From contig JBFMCL010000010.1 in assembly GCA_040754395.1 (NCBI GenBank), positions 43,620-107,619 of the forward strand: a DNA stretch of 64,000 nt, written 5' to 3'. The notes under the pieces are model-generated. The model did no database searches. It saw only the letters and a program-made list of their open reading frames with translations, and had not been told where the DNA came from. A program made the position numbers and the translations under genes. Origin of the DNA: Nitrospirota bacterium (GTDB lineage Bacteria; Nitrospirota; Thermodesulfovibrionia; Thermodesulfovibrionales; SM23-35). Shown here one piece after another: positions 623-2,878 of the stretch (positions within the stretch are counted from its first letter, which is position 1; the number at the start of each line of letters is the position of its first letter).

Positions 623-2878
623 TCAATTTCCCGGCAATGAGCGTCTTTGTTTATGGGTAAGTGGCAGTATCTGTGCATTGCTCTCTGTCGCATTAACGTC
701 GGCAGAATCATGCTGTGCTATGCCGGTTTTGCCCGTGCTGTCCGATGCCTTGAATGACTGAGTGCCACTCATGCAGTTTCTTAACACTCCCTGATAACAG
801 TCACACGCAGAGCCCTCGGGATAGGTTTTATTAATGAACATGATACCCGCGCCCCACCAGATATCACCCCCCCTGTATTCAAGAAATGTCGGATACCACC
901 AGATGTGACAAGGTGCGCTCATGGGCGCACAGACTTCAGGGTTTTCTTCATACTCCACCTGGTTCTTTATTGCTACGCCGGGATACATTTCTGTTCCCCA
1001 GGATAGATGATACCAGGGGTCTTCCTGCGAGGTTTTGAGTAAAGTTTGAAGGGAATTATACGAAAAGGTGTAATCAGTAAGGATATATGATGCTCTTACA
1101 AAATATCCGGCATTCAGATATGGAATGACGAAATTATTATCTGCTGCTGAAGCATATTGAGGTGTAGCAAAAGGTGAAACCTTACAATAGATGTTTTCAA
1201 GATCATGGGGATACACATCCCACGCAGGTACCCCGTTGTTATTAGTATCTACCTGGTCAATGGCTGCAGCACTCCCTGCTGGATACATAGTTCCGTTCAA
1301 ACATATCTGATCCATATCGTTAAAGAAATCCATTGGCGTCGGCTCGCTTATGTCCTTAAACCCGACTACAACCGCCCCTTCTTCATTGCCAAGCCGCCCG
1401 TGGTATACAAGCCGGATAAAGACGTTTATCGCCCGGAGAGGAACAGGCTTTTTACTGAGATCAAAGGTAAGCTCAACTGTCCCGTCACTGGGAATGGAAC
1501 GAATGCCGTTTTTCTCCGGAACTACTATGTAAGTTATTTCATTCTCTGCTTGGAAGGGATACTCCTCCGGGTAGTTCAGGAAGGGGTCATCAATGGCACG
1601 GCGATACCCTATCACAAGCTCGATTGTACCGTCAGTCATTTGCTCACTATTGGCAGAGGTATTTTTTGCACGAAGCGTTATTTCCGTAAACCCTGTGGCC
1701 GGGGTATCTGTCTCTGCATACACTCCGGAATCCGGAAGGGTTATCTCTATATTTCCTCTGAAGAAGTAATTCAATAGGCCTGCGGAATAGCCTACGGCTC
1801 GGGGAATGAGTAACGCTGCATAGTCATTATAAACTTTATCGTCTAATACAGGAATCCTGGGCAGTCCTGCACTGAGCAGGGGATTTTTTTGCCTCCAATA
1901 ATCAAGATAATCCACAACGGCAAGCAAGTATCCCTTGCCGGAATTTGTCTCACCACAGCAATCTTTTGTGTAATATTGCCTTATGTTGGTGCCTGAGGGG
2001 CTTGCAAAAGATTTTCCAATTATTGTCGTGTCCTGAATTCTTGGATAAGGAAAATCTTGAAAATTTGCACTGATTAACCCTTCACTTACGAAATTTGCAT
2101 TTGTATATTCGGAGAGCCCTATGCTACTTGATGCTGTTGCATTTGGGCTTGAACCGTTATATTGATCTGTATCAAATATCTTTGCGATTGGTATTGGGGC
2201 CAATGGATTTGGTGTAAGGGTAAGGATTGAAGGGGCAAAGGATAAAGGATTATCAAGTGCATACAAAAATTTTTGATCATCTGCTAGTCTTAATTTATCT
2301 ACTGCAATTTCATAATGATACCCCACCACATGGGCATCATCCCTCGTATGAGCAGGAACACTCATATCCTGAACAAGGTGCATCAACTGTCCTATTCCCT
2401 GGAAAGCTTTACCAAAATATTTTTCTTTTTCGGCCTGAGTAGGAGCAACAACATTTTGATTTAAATCTCTTCCTGTGAGAGCTGTGTAATAATACTCTCT
2501 AACTGCCTCCCAGGAATAGTTTCCTCCAAACAGACTTCCAAAACTGCCTTGGTCCTGTGCCCATATCACCGCAGATTTTGATGTCCCTTTTAACCCTGCC
2601 TTATCCCACAATTTTAGGGGATTGTGGAAATGATTAAAGGAACGGGTATACATCGGCTCGTCTTCTTTCTTTCCGCCCCGTTTGAGCCATTCAATTACTT
2701 TCTTGTTGTCGATACTAGTGCCCAGCCCTTTAGGAAAGCCTACTTGCTGCCTTAAATAATCATTCACGCCTGACAAGGCCGCAACTTTTTCATTCAGCGC
2801 TTCATGGGTAGGTTTTTCTAATGCATAAGCTTTCATAGAAAGACCCAGTAAGACAATGAGAATAATAATTTTTCTCAT
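623..2878 (-). CDS. Secreted 751-aa protein with N-terminal Zn-dependent phospholipase C / S1-P1 nuclease-like domain
   Basis: Signal peptide MRKIIILIVLLGLSMKAYA; His at mature position 6; motifs HFHNP, HLVQDMSVPAH and H-x6-E; SD AGGAGG; ATGA overlap with the upstream gene. Confidence 0.75.
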   Translation of the reverse strand: MRKIIILIVLLGLSMKAYALEKPTHEALNEKVAALSGVNDYLRQQVGFPKGLGTSIDNKKVIEWLKRGGKKEDEPMYTRSFNHFHNPLKLWDKAGLKGTSKSAVIWAQDQGSFGSLFGGNYSWEAVREYYYTALTGRDLNQNVVAPTQAEKEKYFGKAFQGIGQLMHLVQDMSVPAHTRDDAHVVGYHYEIAVDKLRLADDQKFLYALDNPLSFAPSILTLTPNPLAPIPIAKIFDTDQYNGSSPNATASSSIGLSEYTNANFVSEGLISANFQDFPYPRIQDTTIIGKSFASPSGTNIRQYYTKDCCGETNSGKGYLLAVVDYLDYWRQKNPLLSAGLPRIPVLDDKVYNDYAALLIPRAVGYSAGLLNYFFRGNIEITLPDSGVYAETDTPATGFTEITLRAKNTSANSEQMTDGTIELVIGYRRAIDDPFLNYPEEYPFQAENEITYIVVPEKNGIRSIPSDGTVELTFDLSKKPVPLRAINVFIRLVYHGRLGNEEGAVVVGFKDISEPTPMDFFNDMDQICLNGTMYPAGSAAAIDQVDTNNNGVPAWDVYPHDLENIYCKVSPFATPQYASAADNNFVIPYLNAGYFVRASYILTDYTFSYNSLQTLLKTSQEDPWYHLSWGTEMYPGVAIKNQVEYEENPEVCAPMSAPCHIWWYPTFLEYRGGDIWWGAGIMFINKTYPEGSACDCYQGVLRNCMSGTQSFKASDSTGKTGIAQHDSADVNATESNAQILPLTHKQRRSLPGN

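Follow-up and report, generated by a model that had tools for sequence, protein, structure and literature searches.

The 64,000-nucleotide stretch of contig JBFMCL010000010.1 from a Nitrospirota bacterium (positions 43,620 to 107,619; assembly GCA_040754395.1), in the following called the window, contains a gene for a protein of 751 amino acids (623..2878, from the list of open reading frames (ORFs)), which is predicted to be exported and to resemble the zinc-dependent phospholipases C (PLCs). Unless a locus is named, all coordinates refer to the window, and all features located here are encoded on its minus strand. Three genes run in the same direction here, with the PLC-like gene coming after those of a giant protein of 2430 amino acids and a partner protein of 193 amino acids. 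An earlier note on this DNA, made from its letters alone, had proposed that the 751-residue protein, annotated as hypothetical, hides the three-zinc active site known from PLC and S1/P1 nuclease. A Shine-Dalgarno sequence, AGGAGG (2884..2889), is located inside the 3' end of the partner gene and separated from the ATG of the PLC-like gene by a spacer of 5 nucleotides. No paralog of the gene was found elsewhere within the 64-kb window.

The protein is composed of four parts. A signal peptide of typical composition, with MRK, a hydrophobic core and AYA, can be read from the sequence at residues M1 to A19 (MRKIIILIVLLGLSMKAYA; 2822..2878); cleavage is predicted before L20, and the predicted local distance difference test (pLDDT) score is below 50 for residues 1-18. 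It is followed by an all-alpha, PLC-like N-terminal domain (N-domain; residues 20-375, 1754..2821), as delimited by the AlphaFold model and Foldseek, and by two beta-sandwich domains (residues ~376-695, 794..1753), assigned from the secondary structure and pLDDT of the full-length model. The C-terminal tail (residues 696-751, 626..793) is predicted to be disordered, based on a pLDDT below 50 for residues 696-743 and on the alignment.

Eight side chains of the N-domain, namely H25, D73, H83, H167, D171, H177, H183 and E190, are candidate metal ligands. H25 closes the segment L20-E-K-P-T-H25 at the predicted mature N-terminus (2804..2821) and is the counterpart of PLC H14. D73 belongs to the pair E72-D73 (2660..2665), invariant in 92 of 92 aligned sequences and in 65 of 65 genome copies, and corresponds to PLC D55, a metal-1 ligand and the proposed general base. 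H83 opens the motif H83-F-H-N-P87 (2618..2632), the counterpart of H69-F-Y-D-P in PLC, while H167-x3-D171-x5-H177 (2348..2380) corresponds to PLC H118, D122 and H128. H183 and E190 stand in the string AHVVGYHYE (H183 to E190, 2309..2332); E190 corresponds to PLC E146, and H183 likely substitutes for PLC H142 at metal 2. Seven of these residues had been listed in the earlier note along with cleavage at AYA|L, which makes His25 mature residue 6, and all are found as given there in the translation; the minus strand, D73 and the partner gene are additions to that list.

The composition of the 751-residue protein (13 His, 46 Asp, 9 Cys) leads to a chance expectation of about 0.014 occurrences of HxxxDxxxxxH per protein by our own arithmetic, so the string by itself is weak evidence. 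Its conservation across homologs, on the other hand, places the motif far beyond chance. E72, D73, H83, P87, H167, D171, P175, H177 and E190 are invariant in an alignment of 92 sequences, H25 is kept in each of the 90 sequences with a residue in its column, and H183 in 86 of 92. A further 65 distinct N-domains (30-68% identity) were extracted from genomes of GTDB species in several phyla, and every one of them has all eight candidate ligands. The conservation on which the earlier note had staked its zinc ligands was thus found at about 100%, both in the 92 homologs and in the 65 genome copies. The eight residues follow the order of the PLC/P1 superfamily (His, Asp, His, His, Asp, His, His, Glu/Asp), and their placement on the secondary-structure elements of the predicted model would be consistent with a clustering around three metal ions.

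The third metal of PLC and P1 nuclease has a backbone ligand, which is provided by mature residue 1. In the 751-residue protein, L20 is predicted to take this place and corresponds to W1 of PLC. Within the family, each of 90 sequences has L, Y, W or F in the column of position 20. The N-terminal pattern consists of a signal peptide ending in a small residue (mostly A/S/G), one of [LWYF], four to five further residues and [TV]H, the TH of the family (H25) being paired by hhalign with the (T/S)H14 of PLC. In nearly all of the 150 best phmmer representatives, the N-domain starts at residue ~20-33, directly past the signal peptide. To judge from the predicted signal peptides, this start position is what a backbone ligand at the N-terminus predicts, and the predicted cleavage site would provide the free N-terminal residue that the superfamily requires. 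The W1 backbone of PLC binds metal 3 (PMC10576769). For the Listeria PC-PLC, a single additional N-terminal residue was found to abolish activity, and among the W1 substitutions tested only W1F retained it (PMC10576769).

Profile alignments were computed with hhalign, and the sequences of 1AH7 (Bacillus cereus PC-PLC) and 1AK0 (P1 nuclease) were verified against PDB. Aligned to 1AH7, the family places H167, D171, H177 and E190 onto H118, D122, H128 and E146 (E 0.003-0.0065), with Y189-E190 opposite Y145-E146. A permissive alignment threshold adds the pairs H25-H14 and D73-D55 and the motif pair HFHNP-HFYDP (H83-H69); seven ligands are in register with B. cereus PC-PLC and in the same order. 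H167-x3-D171-x5-H177 forms the core of every hhalign alignment. Against a profile of 22 PLC family sequences the register is unchanged and the score is 32.3 (E 0.0012), while 60 column shuffles yielded 14.7 +/- 2.3 with a maximum of 20.4. The alignment with P1 nuclease scores 22.4, compared to 26.0 for PLC, and covers the core motif only, being out of register elsewhere. A run in global mode gave a meaningless alignment of 7 columns and was discarded. In Pfam, PF00882 (Zn_dep_PLPC) is matched below threshold by 11 of 38 family members (12.9-20.8 bits; gathering threshold 26.8 bits), and PF02265 (S1-P1_nuclease) is matched neither by the protein of the window nor by any of the 38 relatives.

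The full-length AlphaFold2 model, built with the family alignment, reaches a pLDDT of 87.3 and a predicted template modelling score (pTM) of 0.87. It consists of the all-alpha domain (~20-375), the two beta-sandwiches (~376-695) and the disordered tail (696-751). Modelled alone, the N-domain (residues 20-375) reaches a pLDDT of 91.9 and a pTM of 0.92; its insertions, which are specific to the family, include a beta-hairpin subdomain (~284-321) and a long closing helix (347-372). A Foldseek search with the full-length model also matched clostridial alpha-toxins (probability 0.95-1.00). Matches of the C-terminal beta-sandwiches to immunoglobulin (Ig)-like beta-barrels (transglutaminases etc.) dominated the result, and only separate modelling of the N-domain made the search informative. 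The Foldseek comparison suggested in the earlier note was then run on the N-domain model, and its top 16 PDB matches are exclusively zinc PLCs (1olp, 8cqm, 2wxu, 1ah7 and others), namely the alpha-toxins of Clostridium absonum and C. perfringens, Listeria PlcB and B. cereus PC-PLC. These matches have probabilities of 0.54-0.98, E values of 0.05-0.25, template modelling (TM) scores of 0.25-0.44 and identities of 11-19%; the ranks below have E values of ~2 and very short alignments. No S1/P1 nuclease structure is found among the 50 listed matches (E up to 6.2), with several such structures present in PDB. The match of the modelled N-domain to zinc PLCs is weak in absolute terms, yet specific.

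The gene product is probably a metallo-phosphodiesterase that is exported by Sec and belongs to the PLC side of the zinc-dependent PLC / P1 nuclease superfamily. We assign this reading a probability of roughly three in four. Directly observed are the conserved residues, the N-terminal position, the similarity of fold and the pairing of the genes, whereas metal binding, ligand geometry, catalysis, the substrate and what the partner does are inferred. A phospholipid head-group is a first guess at the substrate, to be held tentatively and at somewhat less than even odds. After Sec export, signal peptidase would cut after AYA19 and expose Leu20. One metal would then be held by H25, D171 and the backbone of Leu20 (free amino group and carbonyl), a second by D73, H83, H167 and D171, and a third by H177, H183 and E190. 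As in B. cereus PC-PLC, such a cluster would bind the phosphodiester and activate a water molecule for its cleavage. The two beta-sandwiches, presumably stabilised by disulfides, would probably position the enzyme at a surface or membrane, in a role like that of the second domain in clostridial alpha-toxin. Its small partner, which is usually lipid-anchored and has a CarboxypepD_reg-like fold, would be produced in fixed proportion with the enzyme and most likely would tether or restrain it.

A number of observations weigh against this assignment. Searches of the query, that is the protein encoded in the window, against Pfam (E up to 1), NCBIfam and PDB sequences gave nothing relevant, a search of the PDB sequences with the family profile gave no match, and the gathering threshold of PF00882 is not reached by the query or its relatives. 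The hhalign probabilities stay at 6-20%, even against the 22-sequence PLC profile, so sequence alone is no proof of homology. PLC H142 falls opposite G186, which is not a His, and the role of H142 is therefore given to H183 by conservation only. The fold match is a weak one, with E values of only 0.05-0.25 and TM scores of 0.25-0.44. Finally, mature residue 1 of the query is Leu instead of Trp.

The same three-metal site is used by exported S1/P1-type nucleases and 3'-nucleotidases, which cut single-stranded DNA or RNA and could, for instance, scavenge phosphate from extracellular nucleic acid. Such an activity is rather unlikely here. The HxxxDxxxxxH core fits H116, D120 and H126 of P1 nuclease too, and the His at mature position 6-7 is closer to P1 nuclease (W1, H6; sequence verified) than to PLC (H14). 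Several invariant arginines of the N-domain (R79, R127 and R179) would suit a polyanionic substrate, and the NCBI name of a relative, given below, allows both options. The absence of S1/P1 structures from the 50 listed Foldseek matches argues against a nuclease, as do the lower hhalign score (22.4 vs 26.0) and the loss of register beyond the core motif. Likewise, the sub-threshold Pfam matches are all to Zn_dep_PLPC and never to S1-P1_nuclease, and HF[HY][ND]P is a motif of the PLC type. The reading of the active site in the earlier note, which had named PLC and P1 nuclease side by side, is thus supported by the in-register PLC ligands, the PLC-only fold matches and the sub-threshold matches to PF00882, but narrowed, as this evidence favours PLC over the S1/P1 nuclease branch.

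It is improbable that the PLC-like metal site has been kept for a different phosphoester, such as phosphodiester-linked glycans of the surface or lipid-linked precursors, or that the domain is a non-hydrolytic binding module for the giant surface protein. The size of the domain (356 residues vs 245 in PLC, with large insertions) and its own invariant motifs (GLAEYTNANF at residues 254-263, W64, R179 and D236) would agree with such a role, as would the linkage to giant adhesin-like proteins and the occurrence in free-living anaerobes rather than pathogens. However, the full conservation of catalytic-type ligands, including the general-base Asp, favours hydrolysis, and nothing in the data points to a specific alternative substrate. 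A chance or convergent motif in a protein that is not homologous to PLC/P1 and lacks the three-metal site is highly improbable: the sequence statistics are weak (hhalign E 0.001-0.007, Pfam below threshold) and Foldseek E values are at or above 0.05, but seven ligands keep both register and order, the 16 best structural matches come from a single enzyme family, the column-shuffle control never reaches the real score and the N-terminus is placed exactly as in PLC/P1.

As a predicted enzyme of the PLC side, the query can be compared with B. cereus PC-PLC (1AH7) and Listeria monocytogenes PlcB (8CQM), both covered by PF00882. They have in common with it the all-alpha fold and the ligand order, that is the N-terminal residue, a His, an Asp, the His in HF[YH][DN]P, His-x3-Asp-x5-His and the Glu in YE. 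Both are exported and need a free N-terminus, and the same is proposed for the PLC-like family from its sequences. The identity to the query is 16-19% over ~190 aligned columns, with TM scores of 0.26-0.44. The PC-PLC domain comprises 245 amino acids, the domain of the query 356. Mature residue 1 is always Trp in PC-PLC, whereas the family has L/Y/W/F (Leu in the query), and the first His is found at mature position 14 in PC-PLC and at 6-7 in the family. In contrast to PC-PLC and PlcB, the family has no propeptide, a displaced H142 counterpart, two extra beta-sandwich domains, hosts that are Gram-negative environmental anaerobes, and a conserved partner gene.

The clostridial alpha-toxins (1CA1, 2WXT, 1OLP) are the best Foldseek matches of the query, both at full length and for the N-domain. 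In them, too, the PLC domain is followed by a beta-sandwich at the C-terminus, and removal of the signal peptide directly exposes residue 1, with no propeptide, as is predicted for the query. Alpha-toxin has one C-terminal C2 membrane-binding domain and 370 residues in all (PMC10576769). In place of this single C2 domain, the query has two larger sandwiches of together ~320 residues with conserved disulfide cysteines. The P1/S1 nucleases (1AK0, 5FB9; PF02265) share with the query the H-x3-D-x5-H core, the His at mature position 6 and the three-metal site, the latter predicted in the query; they differ in giving no Foldseek or Pfam match and in an alignment that is out of register beyond the core.

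The C-terminal part of the protein is smaller than previously assumed. About 500 residues had been described as unexplained in the earlier note; the PLC-like domain reaches to ~375, which leaves ~320 folded residues and a tail of 56. The same note had called the C-terminus Cys-rich, which does not hold for a protein with only 9 Cys in total and two conserved pairs in the sandwich region (C526/C692 and C650/C657). The first pair is invariant, and the second is kept wherever its segment is present. This conservation suggests disulfides and an extracytoplasmic location. The tail (696-751) is limited to close relatives and ends in a conserved ...LPLTxKQRR-IP... motif, which could be a sorting or processing signal.

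The partner gene (2875..3456) encodes a protein of 193 amino acids with a signal peptide and a CarboxypepD_reg-like beta-sandwich, the latter based on a weak match to PF13620. Its stop codon overlaps the start codon of the PLC-like gene (ATGA), and the PLC-like gene is translationally coupled to it. The partner proteins of different loci are homologous, and many carry a lipobox Cys typical of lipoproteins. Among all fetched loci, 86 PLC-like genes had sufficient upstream sequence, and a partner homolog ends at most 400 nucleotides upstream of 71 of them. A region with an HExxH motif, which belongs to the giant protein, is found within 6 kb upstream of only 26 of the 86. Because of this difference, partner and enzyme are regarded as the conserved unit.

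The giant protein (2430 amino acids, 3469..10761) is a predicted exported multi-domain protein with Pfam matches to PKD, TSP3, Glucodextran_B, HYDIN-type Ig, Lcl_C and CarboxypepD_reg. Its gene is probably the first of the operon that contains the PLC-like gene. No terminator-like site was found on the minus strand between positions 300 and 3600, a range that takes in both gene junctions and the genes of the partner and the PLC-like protein. The order giant/partner/PLC-like recurs around homologs of 38-59% identity (loci L001-L005). The HExxH motif, in the form of HEQLH, is located at residue 1973 of the giant protein, within a region (residues 1846-2180, 4222-5226) that has no match in Pfam, NCBIfam or PDB sequences and may be an unrecognised metalloprotease-like domain.

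The cassette of partner and PLC-like gene is present in two to three tandem copies within 20 kb at loci L021, L012, L014 and L037 (Desulfosarcina alkanivorans PL12, NZ_AP021874.1). Three short ORFs (L003:8791-9471, L005:8972-9451 and L008:6298-6795) are truncated N-terminal fragments of PLC-like paralogs, and in the L003 fragment the HxxxD motif has decayed to QILQD. These fragments, situated between partner genes, look like remnants of cassette duplication. Lipoprotein and PLC-like enzyme may form a dedicated, often tandem-duplicated cassette of an enzyme with either its inhibitor, similar to an immunity protein, or its anchor, the cognate periplasmic lipoprotein shielding the producer's own membranes; we consider this unlikely. 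If true, Nitrospirota, Desulfobacterota and further anaerobes of sediments would have a secreted phospholipase system that has not been described before and is possibly directed against neighbouring cells.

At least 1393 homologs of the PLC-like protein exist, almost all labelled "hypothetical protein". An exhaustive phmmer search with residues 20-375 returned 4166 clusters (50% identity) at E <=1e-3, 870 of them at E <=1e-30, and 295 related loci were found in a genome scan with one representative for each GTDB species. The hosts belong to Nitrospirota/Thermodesulfovibrionales, Desulfobacterota, Aminicenantes, Zixibacteria, Methylomirabilota and other groups; they are free-living anaerobes, cultured as well as uncultured, and not pathogens. 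One family member (P0115) is encoded on a 3.2-kb contig labelled Candidatus Aenigmatarchaeota by its source; a genuine archaeal copy seems less likely here than mis-binning. D. alkanivorans PL12 (Desulfobacterota) has several copies in a complete genome that is recorded under its strain name. Over the full length, its protein WP_155319903.1 shares 32% identity with the query (E 1e-90), and it has the same domain order and an upstream partner gene; in contrast to the query, it belongs to a paralogous branch and lacks the disordered tail.

NCBI names WP_155319903.1 a 'phospholipase C/P1 nuclease family protein', and the link to the superfamily has thus already been made by automated annotation for at least one relative. 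In view of this name for a 32%-identical relative, the active site is hidden, as the earlier note put it, only in part. Literature searches found no published description of the PLC-like family.

The assignment would extend the PLC side of the superfamily by a very large family with a new architecture, a partner gene in most cases and anaerobic hosts, and it offers a concrete, testable function for proteins that are almost all labelled "hypothetical". The occurrence of L, Y, F or W at mature residue 1 constitutes a natural test of the Trp-only rule for the N-terminus. Experiments are feasible because D. alkanivorans PL12 has a complete genome with several copies.

Elsewhere in the window, an ORF of 2877 amino acids (50823-59456) contains GH94 supersandwich and catalytic domains and a glucoamylase-like domain and resembles a cyclic beta-1,2-glucan synthase or phosphorylase. 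The remainder looks ordinary and chromosome-like, with matches to the selenocysteine elongation factor SelB and phosphoglycerate dehydrogenase, an S1-domain protein and PAS/HD signalling proteins.

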